Sequence record: OM386665.1
DNA length: 64,000 bases
Reading direction: 5' to 3' (one strand)
DNA from: Escherichia phage vB_EcoM_ESCO56
Within the stretch, counting starts at the first letter, position 1; each line of letters starts with the position of its first letter. The notes below the pieces were generated by a model, which was not told the origin of the DNA, did no database searches, and saw only the letters and a program-made list of their open reading frames with translations. Shown piece by piece: positions 1-16,336 of this stretch. The position numbers and the translations under genes were made by a program.

Positions 1-390
1 TTGTGAAAAAATGTATTCAAGTCTGTTTGTTTCTTTATTAACTGTCATTGGAGATTGAAATGCAGTGTCGAGGGTAATGAAAGCGGCTTCAATGCTATTA
101 ACATTGATACGTTTATTCTCACAGTTATATAACTTTACACCCAAAAGGCATGAACTGTCAAATGGAATTTTAACAATTTCACTACAATTTCCTGAAATAA
201 ACGGTTTTCCACTCATTGGAGCATCAAGTAACCTGCAAATAGTGAAAACGTCAGAGGTTCCACCATCACTTACATAACCTGAAAGGCTGACCCTTGAGCC
301 AGCCTCTACAGATAACTCGTCAGTAATGATAAGAATACCTCTATACGAATGCACTCGTGTAGCATTTGAAATAGAGATAACTTCAGCCAT
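1..390 (-). CDS. hypothetical protein, partial (C-terminus beyond window start); downstream of portal, possibly head morphogenesis
   Basis: Minus-strand ORF starting ATG at 390-388 (MAEVISISNATRVHSYRG...) open to position 1; start overlaps portal stop (TAATG coupling). Absent from ORF track because it runs off the edge. Confidence 0.5.
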   Translation of the reverse strand, partial: MAEVISISNATRVHSYRGILIITDELSVEAGSRVSLSGYVSDGGTSDVFTICRLLDAPMSGKPFISGNCSEIVKIPFDSSCLLGVKLYNCENKRINVNSIEAAFITLDTAFQSPMTVNKETNRLEYIFSQ

Positions 391-1865
391 TATTTATTTG
401 CCTTATTTGCTGTGCTTGGGTCTTTCGCTGAAGGTGTCTTTGCAGTACCTTCTCCAGCGGTCTTATAACCGTCTCCTGAACGGCTTTGGGTATTTGGAGA
501 AAGCTTTTCAGATACTGGCTGAGACTCATCAGCAGGAGGAAGACCAATATGCTCTCTAAGCTTGTTAGATAGCTCTTTGTCAACTTCCAAAGCACCTACT
601 GCAACAGTCTTCTGGATATAAGAACCAATTGTTTCAAGGTCTGGAGTTTCGATATCATCATATGTGATTTGCACATGTTCTTCATCGTCCCACATATTAA
701 GAGCATAAGTCTGTGCAACTAAATCACGGTTAATTACGTTCTTAATTTGCTTCAGCAGAATACCTACTGACATTGCTAGTAAGCTTGTCTTAGAATCTGC
801 AAGAGAGAATGAACCATATTTTGACTGACCCATAGCAAGAACATCTGACATAAATGCCATCATAATCTGCTTGGAATATCTGTCAATAATAGAACCCGTA
901 TCATATGCTTTAGCACCCTGTCTAGAAACTAATGAGAACTCGAAAATATCCTCTTTAGTCTCTGGGTCGATATATCTAGGCCAGATTAAACCTGCTCTAT
1001 CATTAGCAATCATATCATTAACGACAGTTTTGCAGTATTGTACGAAAGCTTTCTTTTCAGGTTCTGCATTTTCATCCAGATAATCTGGTGGTAAACCAAT
1101 CTTTGGCATACCTACCAAGTCTCTTGAAACACCAACAGCTTCGTACTCTTCAATCTGGACTTTATACTTCCACGGTACATAGGCATTAAGTAATGGTGAA
1201 CGACCTTCTGGGTTTCCATATTCATCGTCATACTTAAACAGCATGAATTTAGCTCGTGGGAGTTTTCTTGTTAGTGGTCTTTCTCCGAGATTAATTGCTC
1301 CAGCAATATGTGAAACATTTCTCAGATTCTGTCTAACACCAGTAACTTTTCTAAAGTCTTCATCAAAATACCACTTATCAAGTGTTGATTGGTTTCTGAT
1401 TGGTAATTTAGCCCATCCAATTAGACCATCATCAAATTTTGACTGGTACTTTCCTTTTTTACCCTGTCGCTTCTTATAAACTTTCTCATTAACACAGAAC
1501 CCATAAGTGCAGAATGACATTACAGAATTAATAAAATCTGCCCAATCATGCTCCATGTCATCCATTAAAGAATTAAAGAAGTCTGCTCTTTCAAGCATTT
1601 TAGGGTCTTGCTCTTTTCCCTTTGGAGGTACGAATCTCCAGTTGACTTTTCTGACAAACATCTTAATAATATTTACAGATGCTGCTACAGCAGGGTCACG
1701 CATCATTAATTGGAAAGTTTTAATACTTTCAGGGAACCTTAGTGCCTGACGAGGTTCTTCATAGATTCTTCCATTCTTAACCTTCAGACCCAAAGAACCT
1801 ACTTCACCCATCCTAAATGGTGGTAAGCTTTCTTGTGTTTCTGTAATATCTGCCATTCTTCTCAC
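390..1865 (-). CDS. portal protein
   Basis: 491 aa ORF directly downstream of large terminase on same strand; size and acidic/basic C-terminal tail typical of portal proteins. Assignment by position and general features, not a verified motif. Confidence 0.7.
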   Translation of the reverse strand: MRRMADITETQESLPPFRMGEVGSLGLKVKNGRIYEEPRQALRFPESIKTFQLMMRDPAVAASVNIIKMFVRKVNWRFVPPKGKEQDPKMLERADFFNSLMDDMEHDWADFINSVMSFCTYGFCVNEKVYKKRQGKKGKYQSKFDDGLIGWAKLPIRNQSTLDKWYFDEDFRKVTGVRQNLRNVSHIAGAINLGERPLTRKLPRAKFMLFKYDDEYGNPEGRSPLLNAYVPWKYKVQIEEYEAVGVSRDLVGMPKIGLPPDYLDENAEPEKKAFVQYCKTVVNDMIANDRAGLIWPRYIDPETKEDIFEFSLVSRQGAKAYDTGSIIDRYSKQIMMAFMSDVLAMGQSKYGSFSLADSKTSLLAMSVGILLKQIKNVINRDLVAQTYALNMWDDEEHVQITYDDIETPDLETIGSYIQKTVAVGALEVDKELSNKLREHIGLPPADESQPVSEKLSPNTQSRSGDGYKTAGEGTAKTPSAKDPSTANKANK

Positions 1866-1872
1866 CTAGCTA

Positions 1873-3489
1873 TCAACGCCTAAGCCCCTCATATGGGTTT
1901 CCTCTCACTAAGTCTGTGTGAGCACCCATTGATGGTGGCTTGAATAATTTAACTTCGTTAAGACTGTTGAAAGCATCACTGGTAGCATCCACTTGGTCAT
2001 CTTTAGTTTTGCCATCACCACAAAAGCCTTCAAGCTCTTGAAAATAAGCTTCGTTCCAACTACCTCTCAAAACTTTTACAAGTCCAGCTTCAGAAGCAGC
2101 AGAAAACCCCGCAAATCGGGTAACTTTATCTTTATTTGTTGGTTTAGCTCTTGCACGATAGCCTTTCTCGGCAAGTTTCCTGATGAGGGATGTTGCGTAG
2201 GATTTACCAGCAGCGCCTGGGTCTTGAGGGATAAAAATACCAGTTCGCTTACCGTCACTTTCAGCAGTCAAATTAATTTGTGTTTCGACTCCAGAGGGTC
2301 TATCTCTAAATCTTACTACATCAATGATATAATAGCAACCGTCTTTTTTAGATTTACCCATCTTAACACCTGCTGTCCAGTCTGGATTAGGGTTAACCTC
2401 AGATGGTAAAGTTGCTGCTAAGTCCCATGCTCTAACATCAAATACATCTTCTGGGAGTGAATCAACAATCTCACACCATTGTCTTTGCCAGTAGTTTGAA
2501 CCTTCTGCACGAGCCTTCCAGTTACCAAAACGAAGTCTTGCAACGTTTACAGGAGTGTTGTTTTCCAACTTACCACGATACTTAGGTTCTAAGAAGTCAA
2601 GAATTGGGTTATCATCAATCGTACCAGAGATAAAGGTGTATGTTTGAGGAATCTCAAGAGGGAACATTTCAAGAATCTTGTCTCTCTCCCAATCAGAAAC
2701 CATCACACCATCATTCATTACATACCAACGAATACGACCACACTTTTCAGGGTCTGGATAACCTTCTTCATCTAAGAATGGTTCTACCCAATCGTAAATA
2801 AAGTGGTCTCTATCTGGGTTCATGGAAATCTTCATGTATGAATCACCATCAGCACCAGAACGTAGACGGGTTTGTAGGTATGAAATCTGTGAAGCAGAGA
2901 AGTGTGTACCTTCATCAAAGTAAATAGCTGAGTATTCAATACCCTGATGACCTTCAGCGTGCTTTTCAAGTTCTAGGTAGGTAAACTTGATAGTTGCCCC
3001 AGAAGGGAATGTGATAGTCATTTTCTGCTCGTGAGGAATCCCACCAAACTTACCAAATAGTTTCTTTGCAGCAGGCCATAAACCACCTTGTAACTGTGTT
3101 GTATTTCGACGGAAATACACAGCATTATAGTTAGGGTCTTCAATAAATCTTAAAGAGTCCATTAACAACGCGGCAGTCTTACCAGCACCAGCAGCACCAC
3201 CATAAAGAACCAAGTCAGCATTAGTGTTTAAAAAGACCTCTTGAGAACCCGGCTGAGGGGCTACATAGTTCTTATCAGTCATCAATTTAAAGATGAGGCG
3301 AACTTGGTCTGGTGTGTATCTTAATAAAGTCAGAATTTGAGTTGGAAGGAATTTAGAGGGGTCTTTACCGAATGATTTAATAATTTCTTTTACTTCATCA
3401 GAAAGCCCCAACTCTCCAGCTAGGACTTTCCTAACATCTTCCACTCGCTTCTGCTTAACAGTATTTAAGTCCATTAAGCGCCTCCGCAA
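1873..3489 (-). CDS. terminase large subunit
   Basis: 538 aa; Walker A P-loop YGGAAGAGKTAALL in N-terminal ATPase region followed by a nuclease-sized C-terminal domain; precedes portal gene. Confidence 0.85.
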   Translation of the reverse strand: MRRRLMDLNTVKQKRVEDVRKVLAGELGLSDEVKEIIKSFGKDPSKFLPTQILTLLRYTPDQVRLIFKLMTDKNYVAPQPGSQEVFLNTNADLVLYGGAAGAGKTAALLMDSLRFIEDPNYNAVYFRRNTTQLQGGLWPAAKKLFGKFGGIPHEQKMTITFPSGATIKFTYLELEKHAEGHQGIEYSAIYFDEGTHFSASQISYLQTRLRSGADGDSYMKISMNPDRDHFIYDWVEPFLDEEGYPDPEKCGRIRWYVMNDGVMVSDWERDKILEMFPLEIPQTYTFISGTIDDNPILDFLEPKYRGKLENNTPVNVARLRFGNWKARAEGSNYWQRQWCEIVDSLPEDVFDVRAWDLAATLPSEVNPNPDWTAGVKMGKSKKDGCYYIIDVVRFRDRPSGVETQINLTAESDGKRTGIFIPQDPGAAGKSYATSLIRKLAEKGYRARAKPTNKDKVTRFAGFSAASEAGLVKVLRGSWNEAYFQELEGFCGDGKTKDDQVDATSDAFNSLNEVKLFKPPSMGAHTDLVRGNPYEGLRR

Positions 3490-3918: not shown

Positions 3919-3994
3919 TGGAGAATCCGAAGGGACTTGAACCCTTATAAACCTGTTTTGCAGACAGGCACATATCCATTTCTGTCACGGATTC
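3919..3994 (-). tRNA. tRNA-Cys (anticodon GCA)
   Basis: Hand-folded: acceptor GAATCCG/CGGATTC, anticodon loop CTGCAAA, T-arm AAGGG-TTCAAGT-CCCTT, discriminator U, encoded CCA. Confidence 0.8.
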
Positions 3995-3999
3995 AAAAT

Positions 4000-4092
4000 T
4001 GGAGGAAGATACCAGACTTGAACTGGTACACCGATTTCTCAGCTACTGGCAGTTTAGCAAACTGCTCCCTTACCTTTTAGGGTTAATCTTCC
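4000..4092 (-). tRNA. tRNA-Ser (anticodon GCU), class II with long variable arm
   Basis: Acceptor GGAAGAT/ATCTTCC, 3-bp D-stem, anticodon stem GCAGT/ACTGC with loop TTGCTAA, about 21-nt variable arm, T-loop TTCAAGT, encoded CCA. Confidence 0.7.
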
Positions 4093-4093
4093 A

Positions 4094-4828
4094 TTATCTT
4101 TGTAATGCGCTCTTCATTTCTGGTGTTGCAATAGTATCAATCACACCAGTTTTACAAGCATCATCAAACCAGTCTGGTAAGATACCTGCTAAGAACCCAT
4201 TGATATTCGTTTTAAGGTACTCTGCAATAAGGGCAGCTTCTTCTTCAATCATCTGCACAACTTCATCTGCATAAGCTGTAATCTTTGAGATACCTTCATT
4301 AATCTTACTAACAGCCTGATTAGCTAAATCAGAAATAGTCTCAAGACCCTCATCAATAGCGTCTTGTAAGTCACTTAACACACCGTTAACACTGTCTAGT
4401 GTGCTGTTAATCATGTCAATAGCTTGCTGACCATACTCTGTAGCAACACCCATAATACCACTAAATGGTGTACAACCAACTTGTTCTCCTGCTGCACCCA
4501 TAACATTGGAGTATCCCTTTGCTACCTGCATACGTGATGAAAACTCATCAATAGACTTTTGACCGTAGTCTGTTAGGGTCTTAGTAGTTGCTGTAGTGCT
4601 TGTAAGGCTTGTTGTAAAACTGTTTAGAAGGACTGTTGTAAGTCCAGCAGCAACAAGCTTCTCCTTCATTGTAGGGTCTGTTACAGAGCTAATAGAGCTT
4701 ACAAGTGATGTAGAGGCAGCTACGGTTCCACCGAGAACTGCTGCACCAGTAATAAGTGGGTTAGAAAACCCTCTACCGGTTTTTAAGAGATTAAAAATCT
4801 CCTTACCTTGTTCTGTCATCTCTTTCAT
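4094..4828 (-). CDS. hypothetical protein (Ser/Thr-rich, coiled-coil C-terminus)
   Basis: Track ORF 4094..4876 overlaps the tRNA at 4845-4923; trimmed to ATG at 4828 (MKEMTEQ...) with AAAGGTG RBS. Confidence 0.55.
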   Translation of the reverse strand: MKEMTEQGKEIFNLLKTGRGFSNPLITGAAVLGGTVAASTSLVSSISSVTDPTMKEKLVAAGLTTVLLNSFTTSLTSTTATTKTLTDYGQKSIDEFSSRMQVAKGYSNVMGAAGEQVGCTPFSGIMGVATEYGQQAIDMINSTLDSVNGVLSDLQDAIDEGLETISDLANQAVSKINEGISKITAYADEVVQMIEEEAALIAEYLKTNINGFLAGILPDWFDDACKTGVIDTIATPEMKSALQR

Positions 4829-4844
4829 TAAGCACCTTTGAAAT

Positions 4845-4923
4845 TGGTACTCCATATCGGATTCGAACCGATACATAACACAGATTTTAAGTCTGGCCTC
4901 TCTGCCAATTGGAGTAATGGAGC
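4845..4923 (-). tRNA. tRNA with anticodon UAA (Leu-decoding) but class-I length
   Basis: Acceptor GCTCCAT/ATGGAGT, Leu-like D-arm (3-bp stem, loop CAATTGGCAGA), anticodon loop CTTAAAA, short variable loop, T-arm ATCGG-TTCGAAT-CCGAT, A73, CCA. Confidence 0.65.
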
Positions 4924-4925
4924 AT

Positions 4926-5001
4926 TGGCGGGGGATGTTGGAATTGAACCAACTTCTTCGATTTCAAAGACCGAGGTTTTAACCTTGTAAACTAATCCCC
5001 T
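4926..5001 (-). tRNA. tRNA-Gln (anticodon UUG)
   Basis: Anticodon stem TCGGT/ATCGA with loop CTTTGAA, T-arm GTTGG-TTCAATT-CCAAC, discriminator G; 1:72 apparently unpaired. Confidence 0.75.
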
Positions 5002-5009
5002 TTAAATCT

Positions 5010-5567
5010 TTACTTTCTCAGTGGATGAATAAAGAATGCCAACATAACTCTTTCCCTTGAGAATGCTCTTTCTTCTGGGACAACGCTTTTTAGTTTCCAT
5101 CCAATATAAATTCTCCAGTAAAACTGTTTACCAAAGATTTTAATTGATGGGATAAAAGCGAATAATCCCCAAGCATTGCTATTCCACATTAGGAGATAAC
5201 CAGTCTGATTATCTTCAGGGTCAGAACTTACGTTGATATTACCTTTCCACTTAGTAACATCTTTTACATCTCTTCCTAATACATGGTAAGAGAAGTTATA
5301 AGCTTTGTTTCTCCAGAGCCATCCAACTCTCTGCATGTAGACACCCAGCTTACCAATCTCTCTAATCTTAGCCCAGCGTTTGACGTGGCCTTCATCACCA
5401 TCAATCGGGTTGTCATAGGTCTCCATCCATCTGAATCCAAAAGGTAGATGTCCTTTCTTCTCGCTGTAGAATGGAACCACGAAAGGTGCTAAGATGACTG
5501 CTAGGGTTGCTGCAAATGGTTCTAGTAAAGCTAGGAAAATCCATGAAGCATACTTCAAATATCTCAT
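5010..5567 (-). CDS. hypothetical protein (hydrophobic N-terminus, probable membrane protein)
   Basis: 185 aa ORF with AAGAGG RBS 9 nt upstream of ATG at 5567; N-terminal hydrophobic stretch WIFLALLEPFAATLAVILAPFVVPF. Confidence 0.6.
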   Translation of the reverse strand: MRYLKYASWIFLALLEPFAATLAVILAPFVVPFYSEKKGHLPFGFRWMETYDNPIDGDEGHVKRWAKIREIGKLGVYMQRVGWLWRNKAYNFSYHVLGRDVKDVTKWKGNINVSSDPEDNQTGYLLMWNSNAWGLFAFIPSIKIFGKQFYWRIYIGWKLKSVVPEERAFSRERVMLAFFIHPLRK

Positions 5568-5586
5568 CTAAATAGCCTCTTAAGAT

Positions 5587-5664
5587 TGGTGTTCCAAGAC
5601 GGATTCGAACCGTCACTAATACAAGGTTTGAGCTTGCATCCTCTGCCAATTGGGATACTGGAAC
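5587..5664 (-). tRNA. tRNA with anticodon CAA (Leu-decoding) but class-I length
   Basis: Acceptor GTTCCAG/TTGGAAC, D-arm TCC-CAATTGGCAGA-GGA, anticodon stem GCAAG/CTTGT with loop CTCAAAC, T-arm GACGG-TTCGAAT-CCGTC, A73, CCA. Confidence 0.65.
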
Positions 5665-5665
5665 A

Positions 5666-5740
5666 TGGTACTCACTAAAGGACTTGAACCTTTTTCTTCA
5701 TCTTGTAAGGGTGATGTTTTACCATATAAACTAAGCGAGT
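5666..5740 (-). tRNA. tRNA-Val (anticodon UAC)
   Basis: Acceptor ACTCGCT/AGTGAGT, D-stem GTTT/AAAC, anticodon loop CTTACAA, T-arm AAAGG-TTCAAGT-CCTTT, A73, CCA. Confidence 0.75.
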
Positions 5741-5835
5741 GTAGAAGAGGTCTGAAGTTGTGCCGCTAACTCAACTCCGTGGAATTTGTTACGGTCTTCA
5801 GTTGACACCAGCGGTCTTTCACTTGACCTCTGAAT

Positions 5836-5912
5836 TGGTGCTGCTCACAGGACTTGAACCTGCATTTCCATCCTTACAAGGGATGTGTAATAGCCAATTA
5901 TACGAAAGCAGC
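5836..5912 (-). tRNA. tRNA-Thr (anticodon UGU)
   Basis: Acceptor GCTGCTT/GAGCAGC, anticodon stem CATCC/GGATG with loop CTTGTAA, T-loop TTCAAGT, A73, CCA. Confidence 0.75.
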
Positions 5913-5919
5913 ATTAATT

Positions 5920-5996
5920 TGGTACACCTAGAGAGATTCGAACTCACACTGAGCAGATTCTAAGTCTGCTGCCTCTACCAGTTGGGCTATAGGTGC
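5920..5996 (-). tRNA. tRNA with anticodon UAG (Leu-decoding) but class-I length
   Basis: Acceptor GCACCTA/TAGGTGT, D-arm GCC-CAACTGGTAGA-GGC, anticodon stem GCAGA/TCTGC with loop CTTAGAA, T-loop TTCGAAT, A73, CCA. Confidence 0.65.
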
Positions 5997-6074
5997 ATTA
6001 AATCTTTTTAGAGAACTTCTAAGAACCTAAGCAACAAGGTTCCACAACAAGCTGTAATAACCTTAGAAGCCCTC

Positions 6075-6250
6075 TAAAAAGACCTAAAAAGGTCTTTGCA
6101 TAGTCTTGTTTAATCCGGTGACTAGAACCTTTGGAGAGCTTGATATTATCTCTTCTCCGTGACACCTGCTAGGTGCTTTATGAGTGTGTACGACAATACA
6201 CGCGGGATACCAAAGCAACACCCTAATGAAGCTTGGCTTTAAATCTTATT
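6075..6250 (-). ncRNA. candidate small structured RNA between tRNA genes, ending in an intrinsic terminator
   Basis: No tRNA fold found. Minus-sense sequence carries hairpins GTGTA-TTGTCG-TACAC, CACC-TAGCA-GGTG, GGAGA..TCTCC, then AGACC-TTTTT-AGGTCT followed by TTTT (6075-6096). 5' end not defined. Confidence 0.3.
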
Positions 6251-6253
6251 AGG

Positions 6254-6341
6254 CGGTAAGTAAAGGAGTCGAACCCTCACCGTATCTCTACAGTGGCAAC
6301 TGTTTTCAAGACAGTTTGGCTACCATTAGCCGCTACCTACC
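6254..6341 (-). tRNA. tRNA-Ser (anticodon UGA), class II
   Basis: Acceptor GGTAGGT/ACTTACC, anticodon stem ACTGT/ACAGT with loop CTTGAAA, about 20-nt variable arm, T-loop TTCGACT, G73; CCA not fully encoded. Confidence 0.7.
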
Positions 6342-6354
6342 CCTAATAAGACTT

Positions 6355-6437
6355 TGGCATGGGACGGAGGAGTTGAACCCCTTTGAAACGGTGTTGGAAG
6401 CCGTTGCTCATGCCTTAGAGTCTTAACATCGTCCCAT
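6355..6437 (-). tRNA. tRNA candidate, anticodon probably CCA (Trp); D region about 7 nt longer than canonical
   Basis: Acceptor ATGGGAC/GTCCCAT, T-loop TTCAACT, G73, CCA; anticodon register inferred from distance to T-loop (loop TTCCAAC); D-arm could not be folded canonically. Confidence 0.4.
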
Positions 6438-6580
6438 ACTATAATTCGAAGCTTACCGTATTATCTCAACACTGTAAAGCCCCTTCTCAGATTATTTACA
6501 TGTTCTGGAAAACATGAGATACAGACCACCTCCCTACAGGAAGACCCGCTTAGGTCGTCTAAGTAATCTGCTAACTAAAT

Positions 6581-6662
6581 TGGTCGAGGCGGCAGGACTC
6601 GAACCCGCATACTCCACTTACTCGGTTAACGTCTGTTTAGAAGACAGATGAGATACGCCCCG
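6581..6662 (-). tRNA. tRNA-like element (acceptor and T-arm present, anticodon-like loop CUUCUAA; no D-arm resolved)
   Basis: Acceptor CGGGGCG/CGCCTCG with one G-U, T-arm GCGGG-TTCGAGT-CCTGC, A73, CCA; only internal hairpin is TCTGT-CTTCTAA-ACAGA placed too far 5' for a canonical tRNA. Confidence 0.3.
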
Positions 6663-6910
6663 TAATTATCTTTAAAGACTCTCTTAGAAAGCCCTTAAAG
6701 ATGCCCACCTTATTAATCATACCGTGGGCTAGTACGCCAAATTCTTTGATGAGGGATTGGAAGACCTCACTGGTGTTTAGCCTATCAAGCTACTGCCAGA
6801 AAAACATTGTCGTTTGCATTTATTTTAAATTTGCAAAATAGACGCTACGCAACGAAAACTAAGGGTACTATAAAGTGGTCACATCACTATTCTGCTACAC
6901 TTCCATTAAA

Positions 6911-7050
6911 TTATCTTTGTAGATAAGCTACCCAGACTTGCTTAAGGTCTGTAGCGATGTGACTTTTTGGGTTTAAATCTAGAATTTACCCTTTCACCCT
7001 TTGTGGTCGCATACTCACAGGTAAGCTTAATAACTTATCTACAAAGATAA
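6911..7050. repeat. long inverted repeat (17-bp perfect arms, about 106-bp spacer) in tRNA-array spacer
   Basis: TTATCTTTGTAGATAAG at 6911-6927 is the exact reverse complement of CTTATCTACAAAGATAA at 7034-7050. Confidence 0.8.
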
Positions 7051-7098
7051 TTACCAGACCGTTGTTTATCATCTTAACTAGATATCTCATAAAGTGTT

Positions 7099-7186
7099 TG
7101 GTGTGCCGTGTAGGAGTCGAACCTACCGAGTCTCAATGACAAGGGATTTACAGTCCCCACCGCTACCATCTACGGGATAACGACAC
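7099..7186 (-). tRNA. tRNA-Tyr (anticodon GUA), class II
   Basis: Acceptor GTGTCGT/ACGGCAC, anticodon stem GGGGA/TCCCT with loop CTGTAAA, about 14-nt variable arm, T-arm GTAGG-TTCGACT-CCTAC, A73, CCA. Confidence 0.8.
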
Positions 7187-7255
7187 ATTTAATTTCTATT
7201 CAGGCTAAGGACTTGCACCTTACAAATCGGTGAGCAATCGCTTCTCTCCTGAATT

Positions 7256-7332
7256 TGGCGGTTAGTCAGGGATTCGAACCCTGTGCCATTCGCTTAACAG
7301 GCGACCGCACATACCTTATGTGCTTCCTAACC
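7256..7332 (-). tRNA. tRNA-Asn (anticodon GUU)
   Basis: D-stem GCAC/GTGC, anticodon loop CTGTTAA, T-arm CAGGG-TTCGAAT-CCCTG, G73, CCA. Confidence 0.8.
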
Positions 7333-7416
7333 ATGTTTAGTATTACCAGACCGTATCTTTCAATTTTTCCGCTAAAAATTTAATAAACATTGCTGTAAAC
7401 GGTCTTCTGTAAAATT

Positions 7417-7493
7417 TGGAGGCGGGTGCAGGAGTCGAACCTGCCGATACCATGCTAATGAGACATGTGAGACGCCCTTTCTCTATACCCGCA
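7417..7493 (-). tRNA. tRNA with anticodon CAU (Met, fMet or Ile2)
   Basis: Anticodon stem CATGT/GCATG with loop CTCATTA (position 37 is U, unusual), T-arm GCAGG-TTCGACT-CCTGC, CCA. Confidence 0.65.
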
Positions 7494-7623
7494 ATTCTTA
7501 ATGACCAGACCAAATCTCTTCTTTGTCCGATTTACCTTCAGATGAATAAGATTAAGTTTGCTGTAATTGGTCTTCTGTCAAAACTGGCGTTCCAGAAGGG
7601 ATTTGTCTACTGGAACATTAATT

Positions 7624-7700
7624 TGGTCTCTGTTGGAGGACTTGAACCTCCGGCCTTACCGCCCCAAACGGAACGCTCTACCAAGCTGAGCTAAACAGAG
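7624..7700 (-). tRNA. tRNA-Pro (anticodon UGG)
   Basis: Acceptor CTCTGTT/AACAGAG, D-stem GCTC/GAGC, anticodon loop TTTGGGG (G37), T-arm GGAGG-TTCAAGT-CCTCC, A73, CCA. Confidence 0.8.
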
Positions 7701-7864: not shown

Positions 7865-9280
7865 TTACCAGATATAACGGTCAACCATTACTGCTTTGAG
7901 CATTACGCTGATTGGGTCAAACTTCTCACCACCAAGTAGAGCTTTTAAAGTGGCTGGAGAGAAACCAGATACCATTGCTACACCGTTATCCTTAACAGAC
8001 ACTTCGCAAGTACCATTACGGTTTGCTAAGTACCAGAATACCAGTTGTGGCATCTCATATCCAGCTTTTTTGTACTTACTCTGAATTTCTTCAAAGTTTG
8101 TACGACCGTTAGCTCCATCAACCTGATTGAACTCCATATCGGAGAAGATGATAAGCTTACTTGGCATATCTTTCTGAGTCAAGTTATTTCTTTTACCTGT
8201 CTCAAGAATGCGGTCAAAAGCTGCTTGTAAGTTAGTTGAGCCATATTCAACGTGTCGCATCACCTGACGATGACGGTTTCGTAAATCACCACTCAGTTCG
8301 ATGAAGTGAGGGTTTGTTGAATAAACCATTAACTCATTCTTAAAGCAACCTGTATTGCGTTCTGCTACATACAATGCAAGTGAAACACCAATATCAAGAG
8401 CAGTAATTGAACCAAAATTCACCCAAGACATTGAGCATGAAACATCAGACATACATAGGATGTTTTCACCTTCTGCCATCCAGTTTGGTAGTGCCTTCCA
8501 CTGCTCATTAGCAACATCTGCATTACCATACTTAACAGATTTAATCACATCGTATGGGTAAACAGCACCAGCATTAATCTTAGCCTCACCCTTTGATAAG
8601 GACTCGATGTAGGCTTTGTAGCGCTCTCCATCTTTACGGTTAAACAGCTTTTGGTAACGTGCAGCAGCAAGTGAAGGAACCTTACTGTAGTCAATCTTAC
8701 CAAACTCGTTAGCAGAGATTTTTTGCTCAACTGTATCAGATAATGCAGACAACAGTGCGCGGTACTCTTTCTCACTCAAGTTGGCAAACTTGCAGAAACG
8801 TTTTACAAACTGCTTATGACGTGGTTTGACTCGTGGTAACCACTTGGCTGCCAAACCTGCTGTTGCAGGGTCTAGTAATGCTGCTTCTAAATGCTTGAAG
8901 GCATCTGTCTCAAAACGAGTGCCTACGAAGATTTTGAAGTCATCAAAACGACCAAGTTCTGCAATCTTATCCATAATGCGAAGAACCTGTGTAGGCTCTA
9001 AAACTTTGTCTTCAATCGCTTGAAGCAAAACAGTTCTGAAGGCTTTACGCTCACCCATACCTTCTCGTACATCTCGCATGTGCAGTAAAATACGAACTGC
9101 AACATCAACATCCTCACGCAAAGCTTTGTAGAACAGGTCTGGTAAGATTTCTACGTTGCTACGGCTTGAACCAGCAGCTTTGTAAAAGTCTACAAGGGCA
9201 GACATTGATGAAGTATGGTTTACAGCACCATTTTCAGTTCGACCTGCATGAAGGTGCGCATGTTTAAATAACTCGCTCAT
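7865..9280 (-). CDS. vWA-domain protein with MIDAS motif; N-terminal region possibly TROVE-like (Ro60-like)
   Basis: 471 aa; C-terminal hydrophobic strand then DVSCS (DxSxS MIDAS) within ILCMSDVSCSMSW; N-terminal alpha-rich region with TENGA...ALVDFY. Ro60-like call is from recalled family features, not a search. Confidence 0.5.
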   Translation of the reverse strand: MSELFKHAHLHAGRTENGAVNHTSSMSALVDFYKAAGSSRSNVEILPDLFYKALREDVDVAVRILLHMRDVREGMGERKAFRTVLLQAIEDKVLEPTQVLRIMDKIAELGRFDDFKIFVGTRFETDAFKHLEAALLDPATAGLAAKWLPRVKPRHKQFVKRFCKFANLSEKEYRALLSALSDTVEQKISANEFGKIDYSKVPSLAAARYQKLFNRKDGERYKAYIESLSKGEAKINAGAVYPYDVIKSVKYGNADVANEQWKALPNWMAEGENILCMSDVSCSMSWVNFGSITALDIGVSLALYVAERNTGCFKNELMVYSTNPHFIELSGDLRNRHRQVMRHVEYGSTNLQAAFDRILETGKRNNLTQKDMPSKLIIFSDMEFNQVDGANGRTNFEEIQSKYKKAGYEMPQLVFWYLANRNGTCEVSVKDNGVAMVSGFSPATLKALLGGEKFDPISVMLKAVMVDRYIW

Positions 9281-9733: not shown

Positions 9734-9982
9734 TGGTATGCCTCTTATAAGACCTCTTAAAAGGCTTTTAAGATAAAAGATAGATATCCAGAAAGAAATC
9801 TATTTAAATAGCCTTTTTAGAGGAACCTTTTAAGTTATCTTCTAAGTATTTATAAGCCTATACCTTGTCAAGTGCTTTGTCAACAACTTTTTTAACTTGC
9901 AATAGTTCTTGACTTGTTGTATGGATTACTGTACCATCTTAATTAAAGCTGTAGGTCTGCCTTGTTCTACAAAGGAGACTTA

Positions 9983-10144: not shown

Positions 10145-10359
10145 AAATCGCAGATATTATAGACTTATATCAAACTGCAAAGAGTCATGGCTATATAACC
10201 TCAATTGGAAAGAATAGTCACTATGATGCTTTGACTGGAATGTATTTCAGGGCAATGGCTCAATCTAGTGAACAACACTTAATGGTTTCTTCCAGTGAGT
10301 TTACTTCGTTTCTCTATTGCAGCAAAATTATAAACCGCAGGAGAACTGAAAAATGTTAA
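10126..10359 (+). CDS. hypothetical protein
   Basis: 77 aa ORF with AGAGGA RBS; start overlaps preceding ORF. Confidence 0.45.
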   Translation: MCSSQLEIADIIDLYQTAKSHGYITSIGKNSHYDALTGMYFRAMAQSSEQHLMVSSSEFTSFLYCSKIINRRRTEKC

Positions 10360-10943
10360 CAGTAAGTTTTAATTACAATAGTGATGGCTCTGTATCAATT
10401 AATTCACCGTATGCAAATGACCTATTGAAAGAGTTAGTTAATCAGTGCTGTAGAGGTCTTCACTATGTTCCAACTTCTTTTAAACAGAAGACTATTGCTA
10501 ATAACTTGATGCGTATAACAGTGACGACATCGAATCCAAATTATAACTTTGATAGTGAAAGTCCGTATTCATTAGTTGCGCTTGGAGAGAGCAGCCAATT
10601 CAAACTTGTTTGCCACGACTCAGAAACATTTCTTAAGGTATTTTCCAGCCTTATCCATAATAATAAGTACAGCTACGTTGATGGTAGTGTAAACTTCTAT
10701 CCAGCAAACTATACATGTTTGTTGGTTGATAATATGCGAAAAAGTAAGCAAGAGCCTACAAAAATTTCATTTGATGTGAACTCTAGTCCAGATGCAGAAA
10801 CAAGTAAGAACTTTGATATGAGTTACGCATTGTCACTCAGTAAGAAATCCGAGTTCATTGATTATGTCAATGGATTTGGTTTTAAGTTTGATGAGAGTAT
10901 GAATCTTAAAAAACTTAAGAACCTACTTAAGACCAAAACTTAA
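10353..10943 (+). CDS. hypothetical protein
   Basis: 196 aa ORF, GGAGA RBS, start overlaps upstream stop. Confidence 0.6.
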   Translation: MLTVSFNYNSDGSVSINSPYANDLLKELVNQCCRGLHYVPTSFKQKTIANNLMRITVTTSNPNYNFDSESPYSLVALGESSQFKLVCHDSETFLKVFSSLIHNNKYSYVDGSVNFYPANYTCLLVDNMRKSKQEPTKISFDVNSSPDAETSKNFDMSYALSLSKKSEFIDYVNGFGFKFDESMNLKKLKNLLKTKT

Positions 10944-10990
10944 GTGTGAATAGGGGCTAATGCCCCTTTAACTATTTATAAGGGTATTTA

Positions 10991-11365
10991 ATGCAAGCTA
11001 AGAGTGCAAAAGACTTTTATTGCTTCCTGCAAACCTATATCAATTCCGTGCAAAATGGTGAAAGGTACAACCTTAATGATGTTATCCCAACACCTTTGAC
11101 ATGGAGGCTCGATAAATGGCCTGAAGAAGATATTACACCAACAAGCGAACAGTGTACCTACAATCCTGAAATCAATCTTCCAGACTCTGAGAATCTATTA
11201 TATCCAATGTTCCATATTGTTGGTCTTGGAAGATTTCTTATGGATATCCAGTATGTAATTGGTAAAGATTATAAGGTTAAAGGTATTGTTGTTGGTGATG
11301 TATCTCCGCATCACAAAGGTTATTTTAGACTAAACGCACATTTAGAGGCTAAAAGAAATGATTAA
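10991..11365 (+). CDS. hypothetical protein; paralogous to the N-terminal domain of the downstream Ig-repeat protein
   Basis: 124 aa; shares motifs (FxxFVxxV..GxRY, ..LLY..G...F.MD.QY.I) with residues 1-115 of ORF 11358..12491. Confidence 0.6.
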   Translation: MQAKSAKDFYCFLQTYINSVQNGERYNLNDVIPTPLTWRLDKWPEEDITPTSEQCTYNPEINLPDSENLLYPMFHIVGLGRFLMDIQYVIGKDYKVKGIVVGDVSPHHKGYFRLNAHLEAKRND

Positions 11366-12491
11366 AGCAAAGACTTACCCAGACTTCAAAGAGTTTGTGA
11401 ATGGCTTCGTTGCAAATGTAAAGGCTGGTAAGAGATATGATTTTAGAACATATCAGGAGGCTATTTTACCGCTTACCTATAGTTCATATTGGCCTGAAGC
11501 TGATATTGCAGAAGTTGAGGAGTTTGACTACGAGCCAGACTACAAAGTTCCATTTAGTGATGAGTTGCTTTACAGCATCGGTGCTCAAATGAGGACTTCT
11601 GACTTCTTCATGGACTTACAATATGCAATTATCAATGATAAAGATGTTGATACGGTTTATTGTGAATGGTTGGCAAGAGTTAAACCATTCTCAATGCTGA
11701 ATGCTAAGTTGAAGGATGCTATCAAGCCACCAGTAATCACTCAACATCCAACCAATCAAACAGTAAATGAGGGTGGTACACTTACTCTAAGTGTTGTTGC
11801 AACGAATGCTACTGGATATCAATGGAAAAAGGATGGTGAGGATATCACTAGTGCCACATCTGCAACCTACACCAAAGAAAGTGCAACCACTGCTGATGCT
11901 GGTTCTTATACTTGTGTTGTGTCTGGAGAGGCTGGTACAAGTGTTACCTCAGATGCGGCAACAGTTACTATCAACGCACTGCCTGTGATTACACAGCAAC
12001 CTTCTAGCCAGACCATCAATGAGGGTGGAAACATTAACTTGGAAGTGACTGCAACAGGTGCAACAGGCTATCAGTGGAAGAAAGATGGCTCTGACATTCC
12101 TTCGGCTACAGAGGCTACCTATAGCAAGTCTGGTGCGCTTCCAGCAGATGCAGGTTCATACACTTGCGTTGTAACAGGTGCAGGTGGTTCTGTGGAATCT
12201 GATGCTGCAACAGTTACTGTGAATGCACTTCCGGTAATCACTCAACATCCAACCAGTCAAGAAATCACTGAAGGTGATACCTTAACGCTGAATGTTGTGG
12301 CAACTGGTGCAACAGGCTACCAGTGGAAGAAAGGTGAGGAGGACATCCTCGATGCAACTACTGCAACTTACACCAAAGAAGGTGCAACCGCTGCTGATGC
12401 AGGAGGCTACACTTGTGTAGTTACTGGTGCAGGTGGCTCTGTAATATCTCATACAGCAACAGTTACAGTTAACCCAGAAGGGGAGGCATAA
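11358..12491 (+). CDS. protein with three tandem Ig-like repeats
   Basis: 377 aa; after a 115-aa N-terminal domain, three 83-aa repeats each beginning PVITQ(H/Q)P..Q.(I/V)NEGG and containing GYQWKK and AGSYTCVV (I-set Ig-like signature). Confidence 0.7.
   Translation: MIKAKTYPDFKEFVNGFVANVKAGKRYDFRTYQEAILPLTYSSYWPEADIAEVEEFDYEPDYKVPFSDELLYSIGAQMRTSDFFMDLQYAIINDKDVDTVYCEWLARVKPFSMLNAKLKDAIKPPVITQHPTNQTVNEGGTLTLSVVATNATGYQWKKDGEDITSATSATYTKESATTADAGSYTCVVSGEAGTSVTSDAATVTINALPVITQQPSSQTINEGGNINLEVTATGATGYQWKKDGSDIPSATEATYSKSGALPADAGSYTCVVTGAGGSVESDAATVTVNALPVITQHPTSQEITEGDTLTLNVVATGATGYQWKKGEEDILDATTATYTKEGATAADAGGYTCVVTGAGGSVISHTATVTVNPEGEA
11730..12470 (+). repeat. three tandem coding repeats of about 249 bp (Ig-like domains)
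   Basis: Repeat starts near 11730, 11979 and 12228; nucleotide-level similarity visible (ccagtaatcactcaacatcca / ctgcctgtgattacacagcaac / cttccggtaatcactcaacatcca). Confidence 0.7.
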
Positions 12492-12955
12492 TGCAACTCT
12501 CAAGAAAAGGTTTAGAAGCTATTAAGTTCTTTGAAGGTCTTAAGCTAGAGGCTTACGAAGATTCTGCTGGAATCCCCACAATTGGGTATGGGACTATCCG
12601 TATTGCTGGTAAACCTGTTAAGATGGGTATGAAGATTACCGCTGAACAAGCTGAACAGTATCTTCTTGCAGATGTTGAAAAGTTCGTTGCAGCAGTGAAC
12701 AAAGCCATCAAGGTTCCAACTTCCCAGAATGAGTTTGACGCACTTGTAAGTGAAACATACAACATTGGCATCACAGCTATGCAGGATTCCACATTTATCA
12801 AGCGCCACAATGCTGGTAATAAGGTCGGTTGTGCAGAAGCTATGCAGTGGTGGAACAAGGTTACAGTCAAAGGTAAGAAGGTCACTTCAAACGGTCTTAA
12901 AAACAGACGTAGAATGGAAGCTGCCATTTATCTTGACAATCTATACCCAAAGTAA
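12491..12955 (+). CDS. endolysin, GH24 lysozyme (T4/lambda lysozyme fold)
   Basis: 154 aa; FEGLKLEAYEDSAGIPTIGYGT catalytic-Glu region typical of GH24 lysozymes; ATG overlaps upstream stop (TAATG). Confidence 0.85.
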   Translation: MQLSRKGLEAIKFFEGLKLEAYEDSAGIPTIGYGTIRIAGKPVKMGMKITAEQAEQYLLADVEKFVAAVNKAIKVPTSQNEFDALVSETYNIGITAMQDSTFIKRHNAGNKVGCAEAMQWWNKVTVKGKKVTSNGLKNRRRMEAAIYLDNLYPK

Positions 12956-12965
12956 TATCTTCATA

Positions 12966-12991
12966 GGCTCCTTCGGGAGCCTTTTTATTTT
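12966..12991 (+). terminator. intrinsic terminator
   Basis: GGCTCC-TTCG-GGAGCC hairpin followed by TTTTTATTTT, directly after the endolysin stop. Confidence 0.75.
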
Positions 12992-13005
12992 CTAAGGAGA
13001 AAACT

Positions 13006-15621: not shown

Positions 15622-15836
15622 AAAAATTAACTACAGTTGAAGATTACTACAAACTATCCTTGTTAGAACAGTATCGCAGAAGCCAGAATATCAGAAAATG
15701 CTATGGTAGACACGCTGAATGTGACTTTTACCATTGCTATGATGCAGATTTAAAAGGTGTAACACCTAGAGGTAAAGTCCTACATAGGCTTGTTGACCTT
15801 GAATGGGACAAACGATTGAGAGAGGTTGGAAAATGA
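15618..15836 (+). CDS. hypothetical protein
   Basis: 72 aa ORF; ATGA overlap with upstream stop. Confidence 0.45.
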   Translation: MKKLTTVEDYYKLSLLEQYRRSQNIRKCYGRHAECDFYHCYDADLKGVTPRGKVLHRLVDLEWDKRLREVGK

Positions 15837-16336
15837 TTTACGAAGAAAGATACAAAATAGATTACCAGAAGACTGGTCATCATGTCTCCCTAAGAGTAAC
15901 CAAACCGAATGGAGATACCGGTATCATAGCACATTTTGGTGGTGATTATTGGTACGGCACAGGTTGCTTTGAAGGCTACAGTCAAGAATACTTGAAAGCT
16001 TTCTACAGAGACTTTACAAATGACTACAACAGGCTTGTTGACGAAAAGAATAAGTGCATTAAGCATGAACACCGTGCCAGAGGTTGCCTAAGTATTGTTA
16101 TGGTACTGGCGTTCTTCTTAGCAATGTTACTGACAGTATCAGTAATCAGTTGTATAGCTCAAGACTTGACCATTACACAGATTACTGCAAAGCTGCATGA
16201 TATCTGGTACTTGTATACTGTTCCTTTAGCTGGTATTATCATCTCACTAATGAGGTTCAGAGTTCATAAGAAACGACTTAAGGACTCTGAAGTTAAACTT
16301 GAAGAGGTAAGTAAAGAATGCAACCTACAATTATAG
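15833..16336 (+). CDS. hypothetical membrane protein
   Basis: Track ORF 15803..16336 trimmed to ATG at 15833; contains transmembrane stretch CLSIVMVLAFFLAMLLTVSVISCIA. Confidence 0.5.
   Translation: MIYEERYKIDYQKTGHHVSLRVTKPNGDTGIIAHFGGDYWYGTGCFEGYSQEYLKAFYRDFTNDYNRLVDEKNKCIKHEHRARGCLSIVMVLAFFLAMLLTVSVISCIAQDLTITQITAKLHDIWYLYTVPLAGIIISLMRFRVHKKRLKDSEVKLEEVSKECNLQL

Follow-up and report, generated by a model that had tools for sequence, protein, structure and literature searches.

The Ig-repeat gene directly upstream of the endolysin in Escherichia phage vB_EcoM_ESCO56 almost certainly encodes Hex-Dec, the Hoc-like decoration found at hexamer centres on the heads of FelixO1-like phages. The small ORF in front of it is an ancient stand-alone duplicate of the capsid anchor of that protein; it has kept the fold and lost both of the arginines that contact the capsid. 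The decoration identity of the larger gene and its placement beside the endolysin, outside the structural module, are already published. This main feature holds no new biology, though it does confirm that the common 'tail protein' annotation is wrong in FelixO1-like genomes. The small stand-alone copy of the capsid-binding domain (CapBD) is the one part of the locus that the searched literature does not mention. We think it very likely that the explanation as a whole is correct, with the role of the small gene as a non-virion accessory a tentative part of it.

The phage and the locus

The window, the whole 64-kb stretch of DNA that we analysed (64,000 nucleotides of record OM386665.1), comes from a Felixounavirus, a FelixO1-like myophage. 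Over positions 10300-13000 it shares 98% identity with Escherichia phage vB_EcoM_ESCO50 and about 94% with wV8 and a large number of other genomes of Felixounavirus. Both ORFs described in the first-pass annotation, at 10991..11365 and 11358..12491, are present on the plus strand. The features of the window that bear on their role are these:

390-1865, minus strand: portal gene, at the left end of the window
1873-3489, minus strand: large terminase gene, at the left end of the window
3919-7700: 13 tRNA genes, between the portal and terminase genes and the region of the Ig-repeat gene
10952..10967, plus strand: G+C-rich hairpin AGGGGC-TAAT-GCCCCT, found by reading the sequence; the equivalent site in wV8 is annotated as a rho-independent terminator
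10991..11365, plus strand: small paralogue, 124 aa, 14.4 kDa (ORF, BLASTP, PHROG, PDB sequence search, AF2/Foldseek, dN/dS)
11358..12491, plus strand: predicted Hex-Dec, 377 aa, 39.9 kDa, pI 4.4 (9ncf_S E=7.9e-290, 9c2d_S E=3.8e-167, phrog_3995 E=9.6e-205)
11358..11726, plus strand: CapBD of predicted Hex-Dec, residues 1-123 (PDB alignment)
11730..11981, plus strand: Ig-like (I-set/Ig_3) repeat 1, 84 aa (Pfam, repeat alignment)
11982..12230, plus strand: Ig-like repeat 2, 83 aa (Pfam, repeat alignment)
12231..12479, plus strand: Ig-like repeat 3, 83 aa (Pfam), orthologous to the fourth and last repeat of Bas63 Hex-Dec
12491-12955, plus strand: GH24 endolysin (Phage_lysozyme 6.8e-41)
12965..12992, plus strand: strong intrinsic-terminator-like hairpin AGGCTCC-TTCG-GGAGCCT (12965-12982) followed by a T-run, at the right end of the three-gene unit; the equivalent wV8 site is annotated as a terminator

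The Ig-repeat gene adjoins the endolysin and lies outside the structural module, with the terminase and portal genes on the opposite strand and the 13 tRNA genes in between. The remainder of the window carries genes for replication and nucleotide metabolism. The minus-strand ORFs within the region of the small ORF and the Ig-repeat gene are short by-products of 40-73 aa.

Identity of the larger gene

A sequence search against all PDB chains showed ORF 11358-12491 to be orthologous to Bas63 Hex-Dec (PDB 9NCF chain S, deposited as "Immunoglobulin-like domain protein"; E=7.9e-290), and matched it to Sf14 gp20 (PDB 9C2D chain S, "putative tail protein") at E=3.8e-167. Both alignments begin at residue 1. 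Residues 1-363 align to residues 1-363 of 9ncf_S, and the two proteins are near-identical over 1-123. FelixO1 gp36 and wV8 gp41 are further orthologues. The N-terminal CapBD is about 95% identical to that of Bas63 and 85% identical to that of Sf14. Both Arg79 (in QMRTSD, residues 77-82) and Arg107 (in LARVKPF, residues 105-111) are kept; their counterparts in Sf14 gp20 are salt-bridged to Asp221 of the major capsid protein (PMC11821841). We looked for the major capsid gene, for the sake of Asp221, and did not find it in the 64-kb window.

Cryo-EM has placed Bas63 Hex-Dec and Sf14 gp20 as monomers at the centres of the pentamer-adjacent (quasi-threefold) hexamers of a T=9 capsid (PMC12609058, PMC11821841). 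The true-threefold hexamers are empty in both phages, and 60 of the 80 hexamers are occupied (PMC12609058, PMC11821841). Attachment is through an N-terminal domain of about 118-123 aa, and the Ig-like domains are flexible and do not appear as resolved features in the maps (PMC12609058, PMC11821841). FelixO1 gp36, which lies next to the lysin gp35, was detected in virions in a mass spectrometry study of 2010, which also remarked on its position away from the morphogenesis genes (PMC3185647); mass spectrometry evidence also exists for gp20 in Sf14 virions (PMC11821841). From these orthologues, by cryo-EM in Bas63 and Sf14 and by mass spectrometry in FelixO1 and Sf14, we infer that Hex-Dec sits at the quasi-threefold hexamer centres of this phage too. 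We found no evidence that contradicts the Hex-Dec assignment.

The first-pass annotation had remarked that Ig-like domains in phages usually decorate virion surfaces, and had set this against the position of the gene beside a lysozyme. The published maps (PMC12609058, PMC11821841) and the FelixO1 virion proteome (PMC3185647) bear out a surface decoration despite the neighbouring lysozyme. The N-terminal module, for which a non-structural enzyme had been considered, is a CapBD, and the orthologue is present in FelixO1 virions, where its absence would have counted against the idea (PMC3185647).

GenBank and PHROG label this family 'tail protein' or 'major tail protein', and the coupling of the Ig gene to the endolysin could suggest a lysis or cell-wall-binding partner of that enzyme instead of a head decoration. 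Published maps already refute both roles: orthologues about 95% (Bas63) and 85% (Sf14) identical in the N-terminal domain have been modelled in capsid-hexamer density (PMC12609058, PMC11821841). The Bas63 paper explicitly calls the 'tail protein' annotation wrong, noting a gene position more than 10 kb away from the structural module and the same mis-annotation in most genomes (PMC12609058). A tail or lysis function seems to us extremely improbable.

Comparison with known decoration proteins

Bas63 Hex-Dec, Sf14 gp20, FelixO1 gp36 and wV8 gp41 belong to the same family as the protein in the window and have in common with it Arg79 and Arg107, a string of I-set domains and a gene position flanked by the small paralogue and the endolysin. 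They differ from it in Ig-domain number only.

The protein resembles T4 Hoc: it is an acidic accessory protein, binds the hexamer centre as a monomer, and combines a small globular anchor with outward Ig-like domains (PMC12609058). However, the anchor is C-terminal in Hoc and N-terminal in Hex-Dec, and the Hex-Dec anchor is larger, topologically distinct and pseudo-twofold symmetric (PMC12609058). Hex-Dec also differs from Hoc in occupying only 60 of 80 hexamers, in a single orientation (PMC11821841). No sequence match connected the anchor to T4 Hoc, and the CapBD model had no Hoc match in the PDB or BFVD. PHROG 'Hoc-like' matches on Hex-Dec are limited to residues 121-290, which is the Ig part.

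The Ig part also matches T5 pb10 (5lxk_A, E=2.7e-12), but pb10 has one Ig domain and its capsid-binding domain has no match to the CapBD model. A closer relative of the anchor is gp38 of the Erwinia phage phiEa104 (Kolesnikvirus), with a homologous CapBD (BLASTP 35% identity, E=2.5e-12; profile E=5.7e-9) encoded directly 5' of the endolysin and 3' of the homologue of wV8 gp43. In gp38, in contrast to Hex-Dec, the CapBD is fused to a single Big_2-type domain and not to I-set repeats, and phiEa104 has no stand-alone paralogue.

The Ig-like repeats

Pfam recognises the Ig part of Hex-Dec as Ig_3 (4.7e-33) and I-set (6.5e-25), in three stretches each. The three 83-aa repeats previously described are thus real, with lengths of 84, 83 and 83 aa, but the proposal that they are similar at the nucleotide level through recent duplication does not hold. 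In pairwise comparison they are 69-74% identical as protein and 64-72% identical as DNA, and codons match at only 32-49% of the identical amino acids. Each is 81-93% identical in nucleotides to its positional orthologue in wV8, Bas63 or FelixO1, which is much more than its similarity to its neighbours. The triplication therefore predates the divergence of wV8, Bas63, FelixO1 and this phage. Tandem Repeats Finder reported no array with the Ig repeat period of about 250 bp in 10500-13000, because the copies are too diverged.

Relatives of Hex-Dec are known to have one to four Ig domains (PMC12609058), and our comparison between related phages gives the same range: three here and in wV8 and Sf14, four in Bas63, two in FelixO1 and one in many metagenomic relatives. 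Repeats 1 and 2 of the window correspond to Bas63 repeats 1 and 2, and repeat 3 to Bas63 repeat 4; Bas63 repeat 3 is extra and equally diverged. In REP5, which has the two-Ig form, the first repeat is chimeric: its first 90 nt or so match window repeat 1 and the rest matches window repeat 2. In FelixO1, repeat 2 falls between window repeats 2 and 3 in its similarity. These patterns are the mark of in-register recombination between old, diverged repeats, by which the Ig copy number changes, and this accounts for the 210-, 294-, 377- and 460-aa forms in the databases. The structural papers left the Ig-domain copy number unexplained; the chimeric repeats of REP5 and FelixO1 make it traceable to such recombination.

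The three-gene unit

The hairpin at 10952..10967 sits 3' of the upstream gene (10353-10943) and marks the left edge of a unit of three genes. Our terminator scan missed it on account of its weak T-run. The small ORF and the Hex-Dec ORF, both on the plus strand, overlap by 8 nt, ATGATTAA, and the start codon of the endolysin overlaps the Hex-Dec stop codon (TAATG). A scan found no sigma-70-like promoter between 10944 and 10991. No shared late-promoter motif emerged from a search: TATTTATAAG is present upstream of the small ORF and at 9847 and is not enriched in the window (8 observed against 9.2 expected). We read the genes as an accessory late unit in which Hex-Dec would be co-transcribed and translationally coupled with the endolysin. 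The operon with the GH24 lysozyme that the first-pass annotation had described is consistent with the TAATG overlap and the flanking hairpins.

A programmed frameshift joining the small ORF to Hex-Dec was considered and rejected. A reading of the junction showed no slippery sequence, and the 8-nt overlap is ordinary stop/start coupling.

The order of the upstream gene (wV8 gp43-like), the small ORF, Hex-Dec and the endolysin is identical in wV8, FelixO1 and Bas63, which are Felixounavirus, and in Sf14, a Mooglevirus. A divergent 87-kb metagenomic phage has the same four genes in the same order, with proteins 44-62% identical to those here. The linkage of decoration gene and endolysin is ancient in the Ounavirinae, since it is present also in Erwinia Kolesnikvirus phages, where phiEa104 carries its CapBD gene between the gp43 homologue and the endolysin.

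The small gene as a free copy of the anchor

The small ORF aligns to residues 2-100 of Hex-Dec with 33% identity (BLASTP E=1e-14). The paralogy proposed by the first-pass annotation is therefore sound, over these residues where the first 115 aa had been claimed. That annotation had not seen that the N-terminal module is a capsid anchor; as it is one, the small upstream ORF is a free copy of the anchor. Each protein matches the PHROG family of the other (phrog_3995 at 5e-12, phrog_4463 at 1.6e-15), and a joint alignment of small paralogues and CapBDs has 29 invariant columns. The small protein has no Ig-like domains and stops after the CapBD. Its orthologues are FelixO1 ORF37, wV8 gp42, Sf14 gp21 and bas63_0125.

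The only PDB sequence matches of the small ORF are 9c2d_S (1.7e-9) and 9ncf_S (3.5e-9). An AF2 model of the protein, built from an input alignment that included CapBD sequences, has a pLDDT of 72.8 (moderate confidence) and a pTM of 0.72. With this model Foldseek found only 9c2d_S and 9ncf_S in the PDB below E=1e-3, at TM 0.66-0.70, and no other PDB match below E=1. A structure search of BFVD with the same model found Ounavirinae proteins only. An exhaustive search with a profile, over 1.84 billion representative proteins, returned only 13 clusters, of which P0102 is a spurious low-complexity repeat. The family is thus very small, and its fold is essentially limited to this group of phages. 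A word-index protein search with the small ORF reached only relatives of at least 68% identity, and a scan of IMG/VR for the divergent small paralogue P0097, whose gene context came from the 87-kb metagenomic contig, gave no match. Pfam, NCBIfam and PHROG gave no function for the small ORF, which has no Pfam match.

In seven aligned small paralogues the position of Arg79 is an invariant glycine and that of Arg107 a histidine, with a one-residue gap next to position 107. The protein is nevertheless under purifying selection. Between divergent pairs, with synonymous divergences of 0.7-2.6, its dN/dS is 0.07-0.18, compared with 0.02-0.11 for the CapBD, and its rate of evolution is about 2-3 times that of the CapBD. 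The ORF is intact in 232 of 252 phage records, at a length of 122-124 aa. The divergent 87-kb metagenomic lineage keeps it at 44% identity, whereas the CapBD there is 58% identical. Most simply, a duplication later than the Kolesnikvirus split gave rise to the small gene, although the gene may instead have been lost in Kolesnikvirus.

In 19 phage isolates (REP5-12, Tf, mio, Z31, P54, SP116 and others) the gene is represented by one shared, decayed remnant, in which the start codon is lost and about 226 bp are deleted. The small gene is therefore dispensable for plaque formation. We read Hex-Dec in two of the carriers: REP5 has an intact two-Ig gene, and that of Z31 is split.

The loss in this one clade and the lack of an assigned function might point to a functionless, decaying duplicate or a mis-called ORF. 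The dN/dS values over such large synonymous divergences, the constant length and the intact state in most records and in a lineage only 44% identical argue strongly against this, and we consider it very improbable.

Possible roles of the small protein

Virion data from relatives do not include the small protein. It is missing from the list of FelixO1 virion proteins identified by mass spectrometry, though a protein of 9.7 kDa was detected (PMC3185647), and is presumably absent from the VpaE1 virion, for which the text names only gp54, gp58 and gp68 as new relative to FelixO1. Neither cryo-EM study reports extra density on the other hexamers, including the 4.5 Å asymmetric map of Sf14 (PMC12609058, PMC11821841). 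The word 'paralog' and the phage 'gp21' are absent from both papers (PMC12609058, PMC11821841), phage gp21 has no entry in the Sf14 supplements, where all 'gp21' matches refer to SPP1, and a wider literature search on the small ORF found nothing.

These reports count against the small protein being a missed virion component, for instance a plug on the 20 true-threefold hexamers or the source of the threefold density that Bas63 shows at its puncture-apparatus tip. Such a role would fit with the kept CapBD fold and the many invariant polar positions in common with the CapBD, and with the threefold hexamers that Hex-Dec leaves empty. The altered contact residues could suit the shifted Asp221 geometry of these hexamers (PMC11821841), mass spectrometry often misses small proteins, and Bas63 has one C3 density without an assigned protein. 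However, the Bas63 authors assign that baseplate density to the baseplate module (PMC12609058), and with neither map nor virion list containing the protein we regard a place in the virion as quite unlikely.

Two features of the methods are worth keeping in mind. Mass spectrometry easily overlooks proteins that are small or low in copy number, so that the non-virion status is based on negative evidence, and a monomer on a threefold axis would blur under icosahedral averaging.

The small ORF lies directly 5' of Hex-Dec and is translationally coupled to it, and the gene pair is conserved in Felixounavirus, Mooglevirus and the divergent lineage. This arrangement could reflect a dedicated chaperone or loading factor required for the folding of Hex-Dec or for its site-selective binding. 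A strict requirement is hard to reconcile with the 19 phages that have the remnant only, of which REP5 keeps an intact two-Ig Hex-Dec (the gene of Z31, the other one read, is split), or with Kolesnikvirus, where a CapBD decoration gene exists in the absence of any small paralogue. We find a dedicated chaperone quite unlikely.

The loss of both capsid-contact arginines, the faster though still constrained evolution and the dispensability in some lineages form a pattern typical of accessory host-interaction genes. The small protein may now serve another target than the capsid, for example a host protein or some component of defence or counter-defence, and have only its scaffold in common with the CapBD. 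On the other side, nothing in Pfam, NCBIfam or PHROG, whether family, domain or motif, points to another partner, and we see such re-purposing as a minor possibility.

Our best guess, a tentative one, is that the small paralogue is a non-virion accessory of head maturation, acting on capsomers, proheads or Hex-Dec itself. The larger gene very probably works as in Bas63 and Sf14: a Hex-Dec monomer would sit at the centre of each of the 60 pentamer-adjacent hexamers of a T=9 capsid. It would be held there by the helical N-terminal domain, some 120 aa long, with salt bridges from Arg79 and Arg107 to Asp221, and from this anchor a flexible, acidic string of Ig domains would reach into the medium. 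The cryo-EM papers propose a role in adhesion or in the control of aggregation, like that of T4 Hoc (PMC12609058, PMC11821841), and by analogy the string may serve the same functions here. The small protein would act inside the cell during head maturation, on capsomers, proheads or Hex-Dec, and would not be needed for plaques.

A more elaborate role, which we think rather improbable, would make the small paralogue an undescribed player in head decoration. It could sit at hexamer centres for a time, either in the prohead or at the 20 threefold hexamers, thereby determining the sites open to Hex-Dec, or it could be a labile second decoration lost in purification. If either is true, Hoc-like decoration would gain a level of regulation not known from T4, from T5 or from the Ounavirinae structures in print.

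The locus thus contains a free copy of the anchor, directly 5' of Hex-Dec, that is conserved, selected, dispensable and previously undiscussed; the REP5 clade provides natural nulls for it, and Bas63 and FelixO1 are tractable models. Its wider relevance is modest; it concerns the use of the Hex-Dec anchor in phage display and engineering, and the question of why only 60 of 80 hexamers are decorated.

Repeat number and loss of the small paralogue

Two forms of Hex-Dec, the Hoc-like capsid decoration protein, carry two Ig-like repeats and were compared with the three repeats of the window (11730-12479):
REP5 locus L006, 2498-3379, two-Ig Hex-Dec
FelixO1 locus L005, 2869-3753, two-Ig Hex-Dec

The first repeat of the REP5 protein is a chimera of window repeats 1 and 2, and the second repeat of the FelixO1 protein is a chimera of window repeats 2 and 3. 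These chimeras show that the Ig copy number of Hex-Dec varies through in-register recombination between old repeats.

Among natural isolates, 19 Felixounavirus phages have in common a single decayed remnant of the small paralogue, the stand-alone copy of the Hex-Dec capsid-binding domain (CapBD). The remnant lacks the ATG and has a deletion of about 226 bp, corresponding to window 11063-11288. Its REP5 copy is placed as follows:
L006 2306-2497, decayed small paralogue, equivalent to window 10944-11357

These 19 isolates are natural knock-outs and remain able to plaque on E. coli, Shigella or Salmonella.

In Shigella phage Z31, Hex-Dec (locus L002, 2998-3570) is in two pieces, a 134-aa CapBD-only CDS and a 55-aa Ig fragment. 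This is either a sequencing frameshift or a genuine truncation, in which case a CapBD-only protein of a second type results.

Ig-like repeats beyond phages

Outside phages, the window Ig repeats (11730-12479) matched best to GhpA, a grappling-hook protein of Aureispira (9flp_A, E=1.8e-81, 11 stretches). This match is far stronger than those to animal Ig proteins and hints that I-set repeats may have been exchanged between phages and bacterial surface proteins.

Neighbouring genes and other observations

Around the decoration operon the window holds:
3919-7700, minus strand, 13 clustered tRNA genes, with the terminase gene on one side and the decoration operon on the other
7865-9280, minus strand, 471-aa DUF2828/DUF7788 protein adjoining the tRNA cluster, labelled 'RNA-binding protein' in annotations elsewhere
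15803-16336, 177-aa ORF with two hydrophobic stretches resembling transmembrane segments

These Felixounavirus-type phages have no holin next to the endolysin, and the 177-aa ORF is thus a candidate that could encode a lysis-related membrane protein.

An exact copy of the 10-mer TATTTATAAG precedes each of the two plus-strand gene blocks (9847-9856 and 10973-10982). As it showed no enrichment with one mismatch permitted (8 found against 9.2 expected), we do not claim a promoter role for it.

In the Bas63 baseplate, the map shows the puncture apparatus tipped by a threefold density with no assigned protein (PMC12609058), conceivably the location of an unassigned small protein.

A FelixO1-type small paralogue was also found, at 92.6% identity, in the 147-kb record of "Staphylococcus phage SA1" (GU169904.1, 143193-143558). 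This record, which holds the Hex-Dec locus alongside it, is probably chimeric or contaminated.
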